From an uncultured Gemmatimonadaceae bacterium (GTDB lineage Bacteria > Gemmatimonadota > Gemmatimonadetes > Gemmatimonadales > Gemmatimonadaceae), in NCBI GenBank assembly GCA_963829055.1, contig CAWHHI010000020.1, positions 1 through 64,000 of the forward strand: 64,000 nt of DNA. The letters run 5' to 3'. The position numbers and the translations under genes are program-made. This document shows, in pieces, positions 53,642 through 61,338 of the stretch (the stretch's first letter is position 1; every line of letters starts with the position of its first letter). The notes beneath the pieces were generated by a model. The model did not search any database, had not been told where the DNA came from, and saw only the letters and a program-made list of their open reading frames with translations.

Positions 53642-55464
53642 TTAGAATCCGGGCGGGTGCTCGCCGGCCACATTGAACGATCGCTCCATCGCGAGCCCCA
53701 CGCGCGCGATCGTTCCCTCGTCGAACATGCGGCCGATCAGCGTCACCCCGTGCGGCACGCGACGCGGCGGGTTGAACTTCGGCAGCGGATTCGCCGGATC
53801 GGGGGCCCAGTCGCTCCGTGCCTCGCCGACCTCGACGAACCCCGCCCGCAGCGTCAGCGACGGATGCCCGGTGAAGTTCGTGACCGTGAGGATCTCGTCG
53901 CGCAGTGATGGCACGAGCATGAGGTCGACCTGCGACATCATGCGCTGCATTTCCATCGCGAACTTCCGTCGCAGGCGATCCCCCTGCACGAAGTCGACCG
54001 CCGAGAGGAACCGCGCCTCGCGGAACAGGTTCGGCCACGCGTCAGGCACCTGGACCTTGAGCTGATCGTCCTGGCCACTCAGCGTCAGCTCCTCGAACGC
54101 CGCCGCGGCCTCGGCGAAGAGGACGGGCATGAGCGAGCTGTGCGGCCAGTTCGGCCAGCGTCAGCTCCATCGGCGACATGCCTAACGTCTTGACTCGATC
54201 GAGCGCGGCGCGATCGACATCCGTGGCCGGCGCCTCCTTCATCCACACCGGGAAGTAGCCCACCTTGAGACCGGCGACCGATCCGCCCGCATCGAAATCC
54301 AGATGGCTCGGCACACTCGCCACGTCGCCGGCATCCGGGCCCGTGATCGCCTGCAGCACGAGCATCGCGTCCTCGACGCTGCGCGTCATGGGCCCGAGCT
54401 TGTCGAGCGACCAGCACAGCGTCATCGCGCCGGTGCGCGGAACGCGACCGTACGTCGGACGCAAGCCGGTGACGCCACAGCGCATCGCCGGCGCGACGAT
54501 GCTGCCGCCCGGTCTCGCTGCCGATCGAGAAGCCGACGAGCCCCGCGGCCGTTGCGGCGCCCGGGCCAGCGCTCGATCCGGACGCGCCCTCCTCGAGCAG
54601 CCACGGGTTCATCGTCTGACCGCCGAACCAGATGTCGTTGAGCGCCAGCGCGCCCAGGCTCAGCTTCGCGATGAGCACCGCGCCGGCATCGGTGAGTCGC
54701 TTGACGACGGCACTGTCGGCGTTAGGCACGCGATTGCGGTACGGCTCGGCGCCCCACGTCGTGGGAATCCCGGCGGTGTCGAGCAGATCCTTCACGCCGA
54801 ACGGAATGCCATGCAGCGGACCTCGATACTTTCCAGCCGCGATCTCCGCGTCGGCCTGCTTCGCTTTCGCGAGTGCCTGCTCGCGTGTGAGCGTGATGAT
54901 GCAGCGGATCTTCGGATCGAGCCGCTCGATACGTGCGAGGTAGATCCCCGTGAGTCGTTCGGACGTGAGCTTTCGGCTCTGAATCCATCGAGAGAGCCGG
55001 GTGACGGGTGCGAACGCGATCTCGTCGTCGGTCGCGGGGAGTGGCCCAGCGATCGGCGGCTGACCGCACGAACCGATCGCGCTGGTGGTCAGCGTTAGGC
55101 CCGGCAGCATCGGATCCCACACCGTCGCCGGCGCGAGCTCGGGCTCGAGCGCGACCTTTCTCGGACCCGTGCGACGCTCCAGCATCGGCGCCATCGCCCG
55201 CCGCCAACTGCCGACGGCCATCGCGCGCTCGGCCTCCGTCATCGTCACCTGCATCAGCTTCTCGGCCTCGGCGAACGTCGTCGCGGTGACCTCGGGGCCG
55301 GCGGCGGGTGCGGTGTTGAACGCGACGGGCGCGCCGGGCGTCGTCGGCGTCCCTGACGGCGTCGCGGGAGACTGCTTGGCGGTCTCGCCTTCACCACGAC
55401 AGGCGGCGACGGCGCCGAGTACCCCGAGCGGGGCGCGGATGAGGAATTGTCTGCGAGTGTTCAC
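53642..55464 (-). CDS. Amidase signature-family enzyme, Tat signal; frameshifts near 54510 and 54140
   Basis: TRRQFL, GPLHGIPFGVKDL, GSSAG, GSET(G) and CGVTGLRPTYGRV. Confidence 0.92.
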
Positions 55465-55561
55465 GGCGGCTCCGAGAGTGGACGTCGAACGGCGCGACGA
55501 ATCTATCGAGCCGCTGCTCGTCGCCGTGAGCAGTCACGCTCGTGCACGCTCGGCGTGCGTT

Positions 55562-55585
55562 GGGGTCAGACTCGAGTCTGACCCC
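55562..55585. repeat. REP family A copy overlapping the 3' end of the LLM gene
   Basis: GGGGTCAGACTCGAGTCTGACCCC supplies the last codons and the stop of the LLM ORF. Confidence 0.88.
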
Positions 55586-56573
55586 AACTCCGCGCACGAC
55601 TCGCCTCCATCGCGAGCTCGTACGACGCCAGCCGCGCCGCATGATCGAAGATCTGCGACGCGACCATCAGCTCATCCGCGCCTGTGCGCGCGACGATCTC
55701 GTCCAGACCTGCTCGCACCTGGTCGCGCGTGCCCACGACGCTGTACGACAGCATGTCGTCGAGCATCGCCCGCTCGAACGGCGCGAGCGACTGCTCGAAT
55801 CCATCCGCTGGTGGCTTGAGCGGACCCGGACGACCGCGACGCAGGTTGATGAACGCCTGCTGCAACGACGTAAATAGCCGGCGCGCCTCCGCCTCCGACT
55901 CGGCCGCGAAGACGTTGACCCCGAGCATCGCGTACGGCTGCTCCAACTGCGGCGACGGCCGGAATTGCGTGCGGTACACATCGAGCGCTTGCTCGAGCAT
56001 CGCCGGCGCGAAGTGCGACGCGAACGCGAATGGCAGGCCGAGCGCGGCCGCCAACTGTGCGCCGAACAGGCTCGAGCCAAGGATCCAGATCGGCACCTCG
56101 AGGCCGGCGCCGGGCACCGCTCGCACCGCTTGCCCCGGCTCCGCCGGCCGGAAGTACGCCATGAGCTCGAGAACGTCCTGCGGAAATGTGTCGCCAGCGG
56201 CCGGTGAACGCCGCAGGGCTCGCGCGGTGATCTGATCTGACCCAGGTGCACGGCCGAGCCCGAGGTCGATCCTGCCAGGATAGAGTGAGGCCAGCGTGCC
56301 GAACTGTTCGGCGATGACGAGCGGCGGGTGGTTAGGCAGCATGATGCCACCGGCGCCGACTCTGATGGTCGACGTTCCTCCGGCGACGTAACCGATGAGC
56401 ACGGACGTCGCCGCGCTCGCCACGCTCGGAATGTTGTGATGCTCCGCCAGCCAGAACCGGCGGTAGCCCAGCCGTTCCGCGTGACGCGCGAGGTCGAGAC
56501 TGTTCCGGAATGAAGCGGCCGCGTCGCCACCCTCGACGATCGGGGCGAGGTCGAGCACTGACAGCGGAATCAT
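55566..56573 (-). CDS. Luciferase-like (LLM class) flavin-dependent oxidoreductase
   Basis: [37 protein letters not shown] and [11 protein letters not shown]. Confidence 0.93.
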
Positions 56574-56741
56574 GGTGATACCGTCGTTCGCGTTAGGTAG
56601 CGTGGGGTTGCACGTCGCACCAGGGAACGGCGAACGCAGCGATCATTCCAGACGCCTGCATGCGGTCCGATCCGTACCGACGTCCGCCGGGTGAGCGGTG
56701 GCTCATGCGGCAGGGAACCAGACCGTCTCTGGTGCGGAATC

Positions 56742-56830
56742 GTCACCCGAGCCGCAGCGAGGGATCTTTTGAAGTCATGTAGCCAGTCGGCCACAAGACT
56801 CAGAAGGTCCCTCGCTGCCGCTCGGATGAC
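56742..56830. repeat. Repeat family B hairpin
   Basis: GTCACCCGAGCCGCAGCGAGGGA / TCCCTCGCTGCCGCTCGGATGAC. Confidence 0.8.
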
Positions 56831-56850
56831 ACTGCGCTATGCATGCGCCC

Positions 56851-57553
56851 TCACCCGTCCAGGCGCCAGAACGCTCCCGTCAAACCCGCCTGCTCGAAGA
56901 TCGCGTGCGCCTCGTCCATCGTCGCACGGCGCCACGTTGACGACAGCCGATTGTGAAACCACGGCTGTGCCAGACGCCATAACGCGTCCAGGCTGAACAC
57001 CGCGCCCACCGGGATCCCCGACGTCGCGCTCCATTGCCTGACGTGCTCCTCCGACCGGAAGAGTCGCATCGTGCTTCACGTGAAGACGATGTCAGCCCAC
57101 CAGCGGGCAGCAGGCACCGCGAAGTGGACCACGGCGTCGGGCTCGTGCGCTCGTTAGGCGACCATCCCGAACCTCGAGGCCGAGCGGCGCAGCACAGTCC
57201 GCACACCGGGTCGCGATCGTGGCGTCCATCGGCCGTCCCGCGCCTGCCAGCATCGCCGGAACACCCACCGCGTCCCAGATGCAGTTCGCGTAGACCGACC
57301 GATCGCCGAGGCGCACCGAGAAGTCGGTGGGCACGCCCGCCAGCGGCGCCGCCATGAGGATGTCGCGCGAGCTCGGCTCGAGCACGATCGCGCGTCCCGC
57401 CGCCAGCCTATCGAACGCCGCCGCAACGTCGTTGTCCCCTAATCCGAGATCACGAGCGACGCTCGCGACCGACGGCGCTCGCCCATCCAGAAAACCGTTC
57501 AGTATGGTTAGGCGCACGCTCGCGTCGAGATCCGTCACGGCACGGTCGCTCAC
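56851..57553 (-). CDS. MerB-like organomercurial lyase, probable selenoprotein; one indel near 57148
   Basis: MAAPL, YANCIWDA, CADC, then VVHFAVPAARWWADIVFT-TGA-STMRLFRSEEHV. TGA at 57078-57076 is in frame with ORF 56851..57069. Confidence 0.82.
57046..57063 (-). promoter_or_regulatory. Putative bacterial SECIS element
   Basis: Starts after 12 nt downstream of the UGA: stem CUCUUCC/GGAGGAG with GGUC loop, resembling the E. coli fdhF SECIS apex. Confidence 0.7.
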
Positions 57554-59175
57554 TGCACGACCGCCCCGCGCGCCTCGGGCTTCGCCTTCCGCGGCAGCTT
57601 CTCATCGCGCTGCGCCGCCATGAACGCGAACGCGGCGGACACCGTCGCCTGCTGCACGAGGTCCTCGCGCTGGACGCGATCCACGAAGTCCATGTTCGAG
57701 TGATGCGTGCGCGAGTTGTACTCGAGACGCTCCTGCACGAACTGGAAACCGGGCAAGCCAACCGCGTCGAACGACGCATGGTCCGTCGAGCCGACCGCGC
57801 GCGGGCCCAGGATCTCGACACCGAGATCCTTCAACGGCTCGATCCACTGCTCGAAGATCGGACGCGTGCCAAGATTTCCCTGATACCAGATGCCGCGGAT
57901 CTTGCCCGTGCCGTTGTCGAGGTTGAAGTAGGCCGCGAGCTTGTCCCACTCCGGCTTCGTCTGCATGGTCGCCGGGTCGGCGTAGTGCTGCGCGACGTAC
58001 GCGCGCGATCCCATCAGCCCTTCCTCCTCGCCGCCCCAGAGTGCGATGCGGATCGTGCGTCGCGGCTTGATGCCACTCGCCTTGAGAATGCGCATCGCCT
58101 CGATCATCGCGACGCTGCCCGTCGCGTTGTCCGTCGCGCCCGTGGCACCGTGATGCGAGTCGAAGTGGGCGCCGAGCATGACGACTTCGTCCTTCAACTT
58201 CGGGTCAGTCCCCGGAATCTCGGCCACGATGTTGAAGCCGCCCTTCCCTTCCGGCTCGTCGAGGAACTTCGTCTCTACGTGTAGCTCCATCTTGACCGGC
58301 ACGCCACGATCGAGAATGCGCACCATGCGGTTGTAGTGCTCGACGGCGATCGTGATGTTCGGCAATCCCTTGCCGGCGTTCTCATCGCGAGTGCCGCCGG
58401 TGCCGACGAAGATCGTTCCGCCGTCCACGCGCTGCGCCTGCCACGAGAGGTCACTGCCGCCGGCGCTCAGGTCGCTGTCGGCCCCGCGATCGATGAGCGC
58501 GATCGCGCCCTCGCTCTGGTAGAATTGCGCGACGCGCTGCGCGAACTGCTGGCCCTGCGCGAATCCGCCCGGGCCGCCGCGACCGCCACTCGCCTGCGCG
58601 GGGACGGGCGTCGTCTTCGCCTCGGCGACATCGTCGTCGTTCATGCGCAGGACGATGCGGCCGTCGAGCATGCGGACGGCGCGCGCAGGCTGCGTGAGCA
58701 CGATCTTGCCCTGCAGCTTGCCCTTGTACTTGTCGAAGTCCGCGGCGGTGACGATCGGCGCCAGCACGACTTCAGCCTGCACGGTGCCGTTCGTGCTCGA
58801 CGTCCACGACTTCGGAAGTCCGATGATGGGCATGATCTGCGGCTCGATCATGTGCGCGTGGAAGCGCACGAGCTGCCATCCCTTGCCGAACGCCCACGGC
58901 TCCTCGTGAATGTTCGAGAGGCCCCACTCGCCGAACTTCTTCTTGGTCCAGTCCGCCGCCTGACGGATACCGGGGCCACCCGTTAGGCGCGGGCCGTACA
59001 CGTCGGCGATCCACGAGATGTGGTCCATCGCCTGCGATCGCTGCAGTCCCTCATCCTTGATGCGCGCGAGCGTGGCGTAGTCGATCTTCTCCGGATTCGC
59101 GGGGGCGCCGGTCTGCGCCCCGGCGGCGGAGAAGGCGACAACGCAGGAGAAGGCGAAGTAACGGATCGTGTTCAT
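57550..59175 (-). CDS. M28-family secreted metallopeptidase
   Basis: YGPRLTG, GAHFDS, GATDNATG, WGGEEEGLMGS, NLDNG and STDH. Confidence 0.92.
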   Translation of the reverse strand: MNTIRYFAFSCVVAFSAAGAQTGAPANPEKIDYATLARIKDEGLQRSQAMDHISWIADVYGPRLTGGPGIRQAADWTKKKFGEWGLSNIHEEPWAFGKGWQLVRFHAHMIEPQIMPIIGLPKSWTSSTNGTVQAEVVLAPIVTAADFDKYKGKLQGKIVLTQPARAVRMLDGRIVLRMNDDDVAEAKTTPVPAQASGGRGGPGGFAQGQQFAQRVAQFYQSEGAIALIDRGADSDLSAGGSDLSWQAQRVDGGTIFVGTGGTRDENAGKGLPNITIAVEHYNRMVRILDRGVPVKMELHVETKFLDEPEGKGGFNIVAEIPGTDPKLKDEVVMLGAHFDSHHGATGATDNATGSVAMIEAMRILKASGIKPRRTIRIALWGGEEEGLMGSRAYVAQHYADPATMQTKPEWDKLAAYFNLDNGTGKIRGIWYQGNLGTRPIFEQWIEPLKDLGVEILGPRAVGSTDHASFDAVGLPGFQFVQERLEYNSRTHHSNMDFVDRVQREDLVQQATVSAAFAFMAAQRDEKLPRKAKPEARGAVVQ

Positions 59176-60305
59176 CAGCGATCACCGTGAAATGTCTTGT
59201 TGCCGCGAGGTGTTGGCGGCGCCGGCTGCCAGCGACCGGACTCGTAGTCCATCCAGCGCATGAACAGCGCGTCCGAGTAGTCGGCCAGAATCTTCTTGCC
59301 GTCCGGCAGCTTCGCCACCGTCTCGCGCAGTACGTCCGGGTACGAGCCGCGCGCCGCACCGACGAGCGCGATCACGCCATCGTACGCCGCGCGATAGTCC
59401 TTCGCGGTGAACGTGACGGTCTGATCAGCGTACGTGATCCCCGGAAGGTCTTTGAGCGACGCGAGACTGGCGGGCGGAACCGCGTGCAGCCCGGCCTTCA
59501 TTGGCGTTGCCAGCGTCATGATCTTCGCCTTCGAGATGTTGCGCACCGCACGCGCGGCTTTCTCGCGCATCTCGGCGTGCACTTCATCCACCGGACGCAG
59601 CTCTACCGTGGAAGCGCTCGTCGCCTTCTTCGTCACGACGAACTCGACCCACGGCAGGATCTTCAGGTCGTTCTGCAGCCGATCGTCGCCGGAGACGAAG
59701 ATGATCGGCACGCCGACGCGACCCCACGAGTAGCCGACGATCTCGCTCTCCGTGATCGACTTGCCGTTGAGCAGCATGTCCATGCCGAGCGTGATCGTGT
59801 GCGACGCGAAGCCGCGACTCCCGGTCTTCGCGTGCATGGCGACCGCGACCACGGCGTCGTACACGTTAGGCTCCGTGATGTCCACGTACGGATCGAACGC
59901 CTTGTCGCGGATCACCTGCTTGGCGCGCTTGTCGAGCAGGTCGCGCCGCACGTCCGGATCGGGATTGCCGCTCCCGTGCGCGTCGACGACGTCCACCTGC
60001 GTCGCGCCGCCGGCGTAGAGGCCCTCGATCACGGCGTTGATGTCCGCCGCGAGCATCTTCTGCCCCTCGGGATACTTCTCCGGGTGACTGAAGAGGAACG
60101 TGCGCCAGTCGTCCTGGCCGGCGAGTCCCTCCATGTCGTGATACAGGAGAATCCGGACGGGGGCCGCGGGCGGACGTCGGGATGGCGACGGGGAGGCGTG
60201 GGTGCGCGCCGGCTCGAACGCATCACCGAGCGTGGCTGTCGCCGCAGCCGCGATGACGAGCGTGAGGAGGGCGGCAGTGAGGTGTACGACGCGTCGGTTC
60301 GTCAT
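59175..60305 (-). CDS. M55-family (DppA-like) D-aminopeptidase, exported
   Basis: HDMEG, VVDAHGSG, MHAK..FASHT and VSGDD. Confidence 0.88.
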   Translation of the reverse strand: MTNRRVVHLTAALLTLVIAAAATATLGDAFEPARTHASPSPSRRPPAAPVRILLYHDMEGLAGQDDWRTFLFSHPEKYPEGQKMLAADINAVIEGLYAGGATQVDVVDAHGSGNPDPDVRRDLLDKRAKQVIRDKAFDPYVDITEPNVYDAVVAVAMHAKTGSRGFASHTITLGMDMLLNGKSITESEIVGYSWGRVGVPIIFVSGDDRLQNDLKILPWVEFVVTKKATSASTVELRPVDEVHAEMREKAARAVRNISKAKIMTLATPMKAGLHAVPPASLASLKDLPGITYADQTVTFTAKDYRAAYDGVIALVGAARGSYPDVLRETVAKLPDGKKILADYSDALFMRWMDYESGRWQPAPPTPRGNKTFHGDR

Positions 60306-60360
60306 GGAGACACAGGAGAAAGTGGATGCGGCACAATACGGCGCGGGGTCCACCGCGACA

Positions 60361-60425
60361 ACCGCGCTGGCCGAGCGTTATCGGGTCATCCGGGAGATCG
60401 GTCAGTCGGGATGGCGAGCGTTTAG
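60361..60425 (+). pseudogene. Remnant of a Ser/Thr protein kinase N-terminus
   Basis: TALAERYRVIREIGQSG/MASV* resembles kinase subdomain I (LADRYRIERELGQGGMATV). Nothing follows it. Confidence 0.5.
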
Positions 60426-60471
60426 GCAGTCAGCGCAGACGAGTTGCCGGCTCCCTCGCTGCGCGCACCAC

Positions 60472-61338
60472 TCACGCGAGCTTGTCCGGATTCACCACGA
60501 TGAACACCTGCGCCACGCGCCCGGCGGCGGCATTGATAGTGATAACGCCGCGCAGTCGTCCACCGGTGTGGTGCGACAGCCCGAGCCCTCCGTTGACCGG
60601 ATCGACGCGCACCTCGCCCGCCGAGCGCCACTTGCGCACCACTGCGGCCAGGAAGCGCGCGACGTGCTCCGCACCGAGCACCGGCCGACGTGCCGCCGCG
60701 AACTTTCCGCCGCCGTCCGCCCATGCGACGGCGTCGTTGGCCAGCAGCGCGAGGAGACCGTCCATGTCGCCCGTAGTGCAGGCATCCAGAAAGCGGCGCG
60801 CGAGGTCCTGCGCGGCGTCGGCGTCCCGGTTGAACCGCGGACGCCCGCTGGCAATCCCCTGCTTCGCTCGCTGCACGAGCTGCCGGCAGTTGGCTTCGCT
60901 CGTGTCGAGCATGCCAGCGATGTCGGAATACTCGTAGCCGAACACCTCACGCAGCAGGTACGCGGCACGCTGGGTCGGCGTTAGGCGTTCGAGCAGCACC
61001 AGGAACGCCGTGGAAAGGGACTCCGCCAGCTCGGCCGACGCGATCGGGTCGCGCTGGTCCACACCCATGAGCGGCTCCGGCAGCCACGGGCCGACGTACA
61101 CCTCGCGGCGCACCCGGGCGGACCGGAGATGATCCACCGCCAGACGAGTCACCGTCGCGGCAAGGAAGTCCTTTGGCGAGCGCACTTCGGCCTGGTCTGC
61201 CCTGAGCCAGCGAAGATACGCTTCCTGAACGATGTCTTCCGCGTCCGCCGCACTGCCGAGCATCCGGTACGCGATGGAAAACAGGAGCGGGCGATGCTCG
61301 CGAAACACTTCGAGACGAGGATCGGTAGCGAAATCCAT
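60472..61338 (-). CDS. ECF41 (SigJ-type) RNA polymerase sigma factor with SnoaL-like extension
   Basis: LFSIAYRMLGSAADAEDIVQEA, YVGPWLPEP, ADGGGK and NPDKL. Confidence 0.93.
   Translation of the reverse strand: MDFATDPRLEVFREHRPLLFSIAYRMLGSAADAEDIVQEAYLRWLRADQAEVRSPKDFLAATVTRLAVDHLRSARVRREVYVGPWLPEPLMGVDQRDPIASAELAESLSTAFLVLLERLTPTQRAAYLLREVFGYEYSDIAGMLDTSEANCRQLVQRAKQGIASGRPRFNRDADAAQDLARRFLDACTTGDMDGLLALLANDAVAWADGGGKFAAARRPVLGAEHVARFLAAVVRKWRSAGEVRVDPVNGGLGLSHHTGGRLRGVITINAAAGRVAQVFIVVNPDKLA

Follow-up and report, generated by a model that had tools for sequence, protein, structure and literature searches.

A MerB-like gene with an in-frame TGA in an uncultured Gemmatimonadaceae bacterium very likely belongs to a large selenoprotein clade

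The MerB-like gene of the minus strand at 56851 to 57553 very likely belongs, from sequence comparison, to a large clade of MerB-like selenoproteins that is not SaoL and that is recurrent in soil bacteria. Its in-frame TGA (57078-57076) is predicted, with near certainty, to be read as selenocysteine (Sec). Positions are those of the window, i.e. the whole stretch of 64,000 nucleotides that was analysed. The gene is the sole PF03243 gene of the source genome (G000, 85.9% complete).

Duplicate loci (8), loci of unpublished genomes (4) and partial loci (2) were set aside before the relatives were counted, as were the gene's own locus and matches shorter than 120 aa. In a quick, midpoint-rooted IQ-TREE tree of 105 rows, none of which is a SaoL sequence, an 85-row clade (SH-aLRT 97) is separate from the MerBs of mer operons (11 rows). 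The column of the TGA codon contains TGA in 74 rows of this clade and TGC in 11; TAA, TAG or any other stop is never found there. The original prediction expected Cys or TGA at this column, in agreement with these counts. The features of the gene and of its surroundings are given below.

56851 to 57553, minus strand: MerB-like (PF03243) gene, with 233 codons and a stop if the extra base is removed.
57551 to 57553, minus strand: GTG start, with a 4-nt overlap with the stop of the M28 peptidase (GTGA, 57553-57550).
57281 to 57283, minus strand: Cys91, aligned with MerB Cys96; Cys in 74/74 TGA members.
57272 to 57274, minus strand: Asp94, aligned with MerB Asp99 (proton donor in MerB); 74/74.
57203 to 57205, minus strand: Cys117, aligned with the structural Cys117 of MerB; 74/74.
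57076 to 57078, minus strand: in-frame TGA, codon 159, predicted Sec159, at the position of MerB Cys159 in the profile alignment.
57046 to 57063, minus strand: hairpin resembling a bacterial SECIS (GGUC loop on a 7-bp stem), which encodes LFRSEE.
57146: extra, frame-shifting base, likely an assembly error according to contig comparison.
57550 to 59175, minus strand: M28 peptidase, an upstream neighbour only; the link is not conserved.
55566 to 56573, minus strand: LLM-class (TIGR03558) oxidoreductase, downstream neighbour, not conserved in the clade.

Architecture, active site and related families

The gene is carried, as had been proposed, by a single minus-strand frame through the TGA: WWADIVFT-TGA-STMRLFRSEEHV, with 74 further open codons until the TGA at 56853-56851. 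The proposed overlap with the stop of the M28 peptidase is also found. The product contains, in this order, a winged-helix N terminus, a MerB core and a Trp-rich C-terminal tail of ~35 aa. Its length from the GTG start matches that of the intact relatives L036-L038. In a profile search, the N half (57553 to ~57148) covers positions 4-59 of PF03243 (41.7 bits) and the C half (frame from ~57150, TGA read through) covers positions 62-125 (48.3 bits); both exceed the gathering cut-off (27 bits).

The family profile places the Cys, Asp and Cys residues on Cys96, Asp99 and Cys117 of MerB and the TGA column on Cys159, which is the catalytic Cys position at which Sec had been predicted. The register of the alignment was fixed by the C160S mutant chain of MerB. 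Cys91, Trp93, Asp94 and Cys117 are invariant in 74/74 TGA members. The residue that precedes Sec is generally Thr (TU 71, SU 2, NU 1). The AlphaFold2 model of the intact relative L037 (Sec modelled as Cys) has a pLDDT of 96.9. With this model as query, all 11 Foldseek matches at E <= 0.001 are MerB or MerB2 (TM ~0.6, 20-23% identity).

The clade shares with MerB (EC 4.99.1.2; PDB 3F0O, 3F2G, 1S6L; MerB2, 5C17) its fold (Foldseek E ~1e-10) and the equivalents of Cys96, Asp99, Cys117 and, with the TGA read as Sec, Cys159. It differs from MerB by a predicted Sec in place of Cys159, the lack of a Cys160 equivalent, an added Trp-rich C-terminal tail, ~22% identity, a separate position in the tree, and the absence of a mer operon and of merA enrichment. 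Scores against the MerB equivalogs are 18-49 bits for six intact relatives and 21-29 bits for the N half of the gene; the cut-offs are at least 200 (NF033555) and at least 193 (NF009710). Three residues of the four-residue MerB signature given in the available part of PMC8261052 are present; the fourth is the TGA, which agrees with the signature only if read as Sec.

SaoL (NF040728) is described, in the available part of 10.1101/2022.07.06.499078, as a MerB-like selenoprotein with a Cys-Sec motif encoded by a nine-gene locus of anaerobes; the same accession is listed in the accessible portion of PMC9312934. The earlier statement that Sec-containing MerB-like families are known holds for SaoL, but this is a different family from that of the present gene. 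As far as the available description of SaoL goes, both have a PF03243 domain, Sec at the position of MerB Cys159 and conserved Cys and Asp; both are truncated at the UGA by gene callers, and the function of both is predicted. The clade, when compared with the same description, has Thr-Sec instead of Cys-Sec and 74 residues after Sec instead of ~50, and it is found in Gemmatimonadota, Actinomycetota, Acidobacteriota and other hosts that are not among the anaerobes given for SaoL. Scores against the SaoL HMM are 23-50 bits (six relatives) and 32.6 bits (N half of the gene), for a cut-off of 140. The nine-gene SAO locus was not found; the neighbours here are the M28 and LLM genes. SaoB and SaoC were not detected in the source genome, in a search where no positive control responded. 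Identity with SaoL was ruled out from the Thr-Sec motif, the scores far below 140 and the lack of a detected SAO locus.

Genomic context and proposed function

No conserved operon was found: the 259 neighbour ORFs of 59 loci cluster only among close kin. A Pfam scan of 58 neighbours gave scattered families (GNAT 3, glyoxalase 2, DoxX 2, cation-efflux 1) and neither mer nor SAO genes. Relatives of M28, LLM, merA, merR, merT and merP were found at 0/85 clade loci (median locus 3.7 kb), the positive control of the mer tblastn search being weak (merR alone responded, at 2/7 outgroup loci). MerA was not detected above cut-off in the source genome. Above the same type of cut-off, merA was found in 1/22 TGA hosts versus 24/178 other genomes (7 candidates scored per genome). 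Canonical-type matches of genomes G101 and G125 are located 1-3 kb from merA. The clade is not tied to mer. The original prediction, which reported no mer operon nearby, is supported by the source genome and by the clade loci. It had also drawn on the overlap with the M28 gene for an indication of the substrate; this part is not upheld, since no clade locus carries an M28 relative and neighbours differ between loci. A substrate other than mercury is possible, on account of the lack of merA co-occurrence and not of the M28 neighbour.

The proposal that the gene encodes a MerB-fold selenoprotein that would capture and cut organomercury or a similar organometal(loid) independently of MerA is held with evenly balanced confidence. 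The broader assignment as a metal-carbon lyase or trap is slightly favoured as a prediction from sequence. It is doubtful that methylmercury would be the main natural substrate. In MerB, according to the available part of PMC10114901, R-Hg+ is held by Cys96 and Cys159, the carbon receives its proton from Asp99, and Hg(II) is taken up by MerA. By analogy, the S of Cys91 and the Se of Sec159 would bind R-M+ and Asp94 would protonate the carbon; the alignment and the model of the intact relative show a MerB fold in which the positions of the Cys-Asp-Cys/Sec triad are in register. Soft metals are bound more tightly by a selenolate, which could draw trace substrate from thiols; speculatively, the selenolate of Sec159 would take it from cellular thiols. 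Without MerA, the metal might stay bound or pass to small thiols or to selenide, and the protein might work as a lyase with slow turnover or as a sacrificial trap, these steps being equally speculative. Product removal is unexplained, since merA was found in only one of the 22 hosts.

A less likely reading, but one of some weight, is that the protein is a real selenoprotein that acts as a thiol/selenol redox enzyme or as a metal(loid) buffer or sensor, the MerB fold being used without metal-carbon cleavage. It could rely on selenenylsulfide cycling between Cys91 and Sec159 or provide a binding site only. The lack of a mer gene link agrees with this reading, as do wider-family proteins in which Cys replaces Asp (31/154 aligned rows), leading to a three-thiol site (C-x-x-C and a later Cys), and fusions of wider-family members to LuxR-HTH, GNAT, glyoxalase or PhzF domains. 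These Cys-for-Asp rows and four LuxR HTH fusions imply that plain metal binding or sensing fits too. Moreover, most uncharacterized selenoproteins are considered likely to be redox proteins in the available part of PMC13188914, and the D99S mutant of MerB binds Cu according to that of PMC10114901. However, Asp94, which corresponds to the general acid of MerB, is invariant in all 74 Sec members and this favours lyase-like chemistry; furthermore, no recurring thioredoxin or reductase was found among the 58 scanned neighbours or in the neighbour clustering. The lyase or trap reading is kept as the preferred one.

Integrity of the gene and decoding of the TGA

The original prediction proposed that an indel near 57148 hides the N-terminal join. 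A single gene with one extra base is indeed found, but the base maps to 57146. The region was aligned with contigs from four public DNA runs; one run (X2) has no cover at 57146, and the base is missing in 3/3 runs that cover the site (X1, X4, X11). The covering runs correspond to near-identical strains (~99% identity) and may not stem from the source sample. It is highly probable, from these alignments, that the extra base is an assembly error and that the gene is intact in the source strain. The spacer at 56766-56850 (85 nt), whose edge is the last base of the stop region of the gene, is replaced by 12 nt in the four runs; this difference corresponds either to strain variation or to a small insertion. 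The amidase gene (PF01425) at 53642-55464 (minus strand) is split over three frames (profile positions 2-152, then 162-274), likely by further assembly indels.

The family could be a real Sec family while the copy of the source strain is a pseudogene, inactivated by a genuine frameshift at 57146. The extra base is present in the assembly, and the compared contigs come from other samples, with a few letter differences and a different downstream spacer. This reading is nevertheless improbable: the base is absent in all covering runs at ~99% identity, the MerB-like gene has no other lesion, and the amidase gene of the window is likewise split across frames, as would be expected from indel errors.

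The hairpin of 18 nt predicted at 57063-57046, 12 bases past the TGA, is present, with a 7-bp stem, a GGUC loop and a folding energy of -8.8 kcal/mol. Its likeness to the SECIS of E. coli fdhF, also predicted, is supported: both have a short upper stem and a GGUC-containing apical loop, which begins 19 nt after the UGA here versus 18 nt in fdhF. The stem differs from that of fdhF in that it is a perfect 7-bp stem without bulge, and its binding by SelB is predicted. In the available part of PMC13188914, the bSECIS model is limited to a loop of 3-9 nt with G first, a stem of 4-16 bp, a distance of 16-37 nt from the UGA and an MFE <= -7.5; the hairpin is within all these limits (GGUC, 7 bp, 19 nt, -8.8 kcal/mol). 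No stability beyond chance was found (60-nt fold, z = -0.43 versus shuffles), and the source genome contains 43 cases of a TGA with a GG(U/A)C hairpin behind it within an open frame. Hairpin stability was consequently dropped as evidence for Sec. The window region 55000-60500 gave 0 matches in Rfam. A Sec-type formate dehydrogenase, sought above cut-off for SECIS comparison, was not found in the source genome.

As the hairpin alone does not exceed chance, the case for Sec is built on conservation in the clade. The GGUC loop is found in 69/74 TGA genes and the FRSE motif that the hairpin encodes in 68/74, versus 0/11 TGC genes for each. The Arg codon of the hairpin is CGG in 72/74 members (background elsewhere in 59 clade genes, 35%, 399/1149) and the Ser codon is TCG in 69/69 (background in the same genes, 33%, 191/579). 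Core stem pairs are kept in 69-74 of the 74 genes; they are mostly invariant or show U-A/U-G exchange, not compensatory change. Haft and Gwadz (available part of 10.1101/2022.07.06.499078) define a selenoprotein family by at least 10 examples, all with TGA, and homology through the Cys/Sec column; the clade provides 74 TGA and 11 TGC genes, with no other stop among the 85. SelB would bind the GGUC hairpin and insert Sec, which is strongly suggested by the sequence. The RNA runs (n=4) contain 6-9% of the words and do not constitute expression evidence.

The Sec machinery expected by the original prediction is encoded by the source genome: selA (548 bits), selB (315), selD (360) and tRNA-Sec (71) all score above cut-off. 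The selD gene (C16, 625106-626214, minus strand) is of the Sec form, with its own in-frame TGA, and lies directly upstream of the tRNA-Sec gene; selA and selB are located elsewhere on C16. A peroxiredoxin/BCP-like frame with TPGU (C12 near 377623, minus strand) is likely a second selenoprotein, of a known family. The hairpins of selD and of this peroxiredoxin are unlike that of the MerB-like gene in sequence. Among Gemmatimonadota, selA was found in 22/22 TGA hosts versus 161/200 genomes sampled overall (P ~0.006, kin not being independent). The 200-genome denominators include the unpublished genomes G013, G098 and G212, on which alone no claim is made. In the search that also gave relatives from Acidobacteriota, Chloroflexota and Eisenbacteria, 23/27 hosts have selA; selB was found in none of the four others, two of which have tRNA-Sec. 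The remaining two, the TGA hosts G238 and G263, for which genome completeness is not given, showed no selA, selB or tRNA-Sec. In Actinomycetota, selA was found in 19/20 hosts, in pieces in one of them; it was not found in the TGA host G490. Hosts of the Cys form have selA in 5/6, 2/2 and 1/3 cases in three genome sets. Since these Cys forms are mostly found in selA-positive genomes, presence of the Sec machinery does not by itself account for which hosts have TGA and which have TGC.

Termination at a true TGA stop, the C-terminal 72 aa being encoded by a second small gene that restarts at an ATG three codons on, is very improbable. An ATG is indeed found at +3 codons in 57/74 members, 100 of the best 120 public protein matches are short proteins whose last residues, at the column, form FT-like tetrapeptides, and 71/154 aligned public rows (50%-identity representatives) end there. 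However, 17/74 members have ATC, ATT or CTC at +3, no stop other than an in-frame TGA is found at the column, and the SECIS codons are fixed solely in the TGA genes; such a stop would also remove a catalytic residue that is kept as Cys in the 11/11 uninterrupted clade members. An altered genetic code with UGA read as Trp or Cys is barely conceivable: W is found at the column in some public proteins (P0001, P0125, sister clade), but ordinary genes end in TGA here (the M28 peptidase and the MerB-like gene), the only UCA tRNA found is tRNA-Sec, a CCA tRNA-Trp is present and homologues carry Cys, not Trp, at the column.

Distribution, annotation and significance

The closest named relatives, with 73-82% identity over the C half, are from Gemmatimonadaceae. 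The TGA form was found in 22/200 sampled Gemmatimonadota genomes (~11%). In Actinomycetota, a match that holds the TGA was found at E < 1e-40 in 31/351 genomes (4 of the 31 unpublished), and the position of the TGA at the column was checked in the 20 retained loci. The TGA form was further found in Acidobacteriota, Chloroflexota, Eisenbacteria and others. Among plasmids, the best matches are uninterrupted Cys forms from Ralstonia megaplasmids, followed by canonical MerBs; the single Ralstonia locus examined has TGC at the column. This locus (L102, 4001-4678) is annotated as hypothetical and follows a DUF2000 gene and a regulator gene. In the tree, Cys forms are nested within Sec forms, an arrangement that is no more than suggestive because this tree is quick and midpoint-rooted. 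Some members of a 9-row sister clade have TGA at both cysteines; those with TGA at both MerB cysteines include loci L062 and L063 and proteins P0015, P0068 and P0094, and the public proteins have W at the two positions. Three-thiol forms of the wider family include P0130, P0148 and P0162, and some of these forms carry an additional GNAT, glyoxalase or DUF3303 domain as a fusion. P0140, P0168, P0176 and P0229 have a MerB-like domain and a C-terminal LuxR HTH and could be metal(loid)-sensing regulators.

Public gene calls for the clade stop just short of the catalytic residue, and the fragments thus truncated are named 'organomercurial lyase' by NCBI. In the available part of the 2026 inventory of 119 selenoprotein families (PMC13188914), SaoL is the only MerB-like family and the present clade is absent. 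The term MerB is absent from the text and 4 supplements of PMC2398784, from the text of PMC5029168 and from that of deep-Sep (PMC12013277). It is also absent from the BSepDB text (PMC13326102) and the accessible part of one supplement; Gemmatimonadota genomes are covered by BSepDB, whose entries may include genes of the clade. With regard to what the 2026 inventory presents, a large selenoprotein subfamily of soil bacteria would be added.

The available part of the PMC8261052 survey indicates that MerBs are screened by four residues, including Cys159, that about half of the genomes with merB lack MerA, and that activity in these is unreported. Since merB surveys screen for Cys96, Asp99, Cys117 and Cys159, the clade would be dropped by them. 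It is unlikely, although conceivable, that widespread stand-alone Sec-MerB enzymes demethylate or trap trace methylmercury without MerA, the mercury being locked on selenium. If true, this would be a cryptic route of demethylation in soil, overlooked by merB surveys that need Cys159, and would answer why MerB frequently occurs without MerA. Natural Sec and Cys versions within one clade would allow a direct test of the effect of selenium at the MerB site, and the same pair bears on the role of MerB in cells without MerA.
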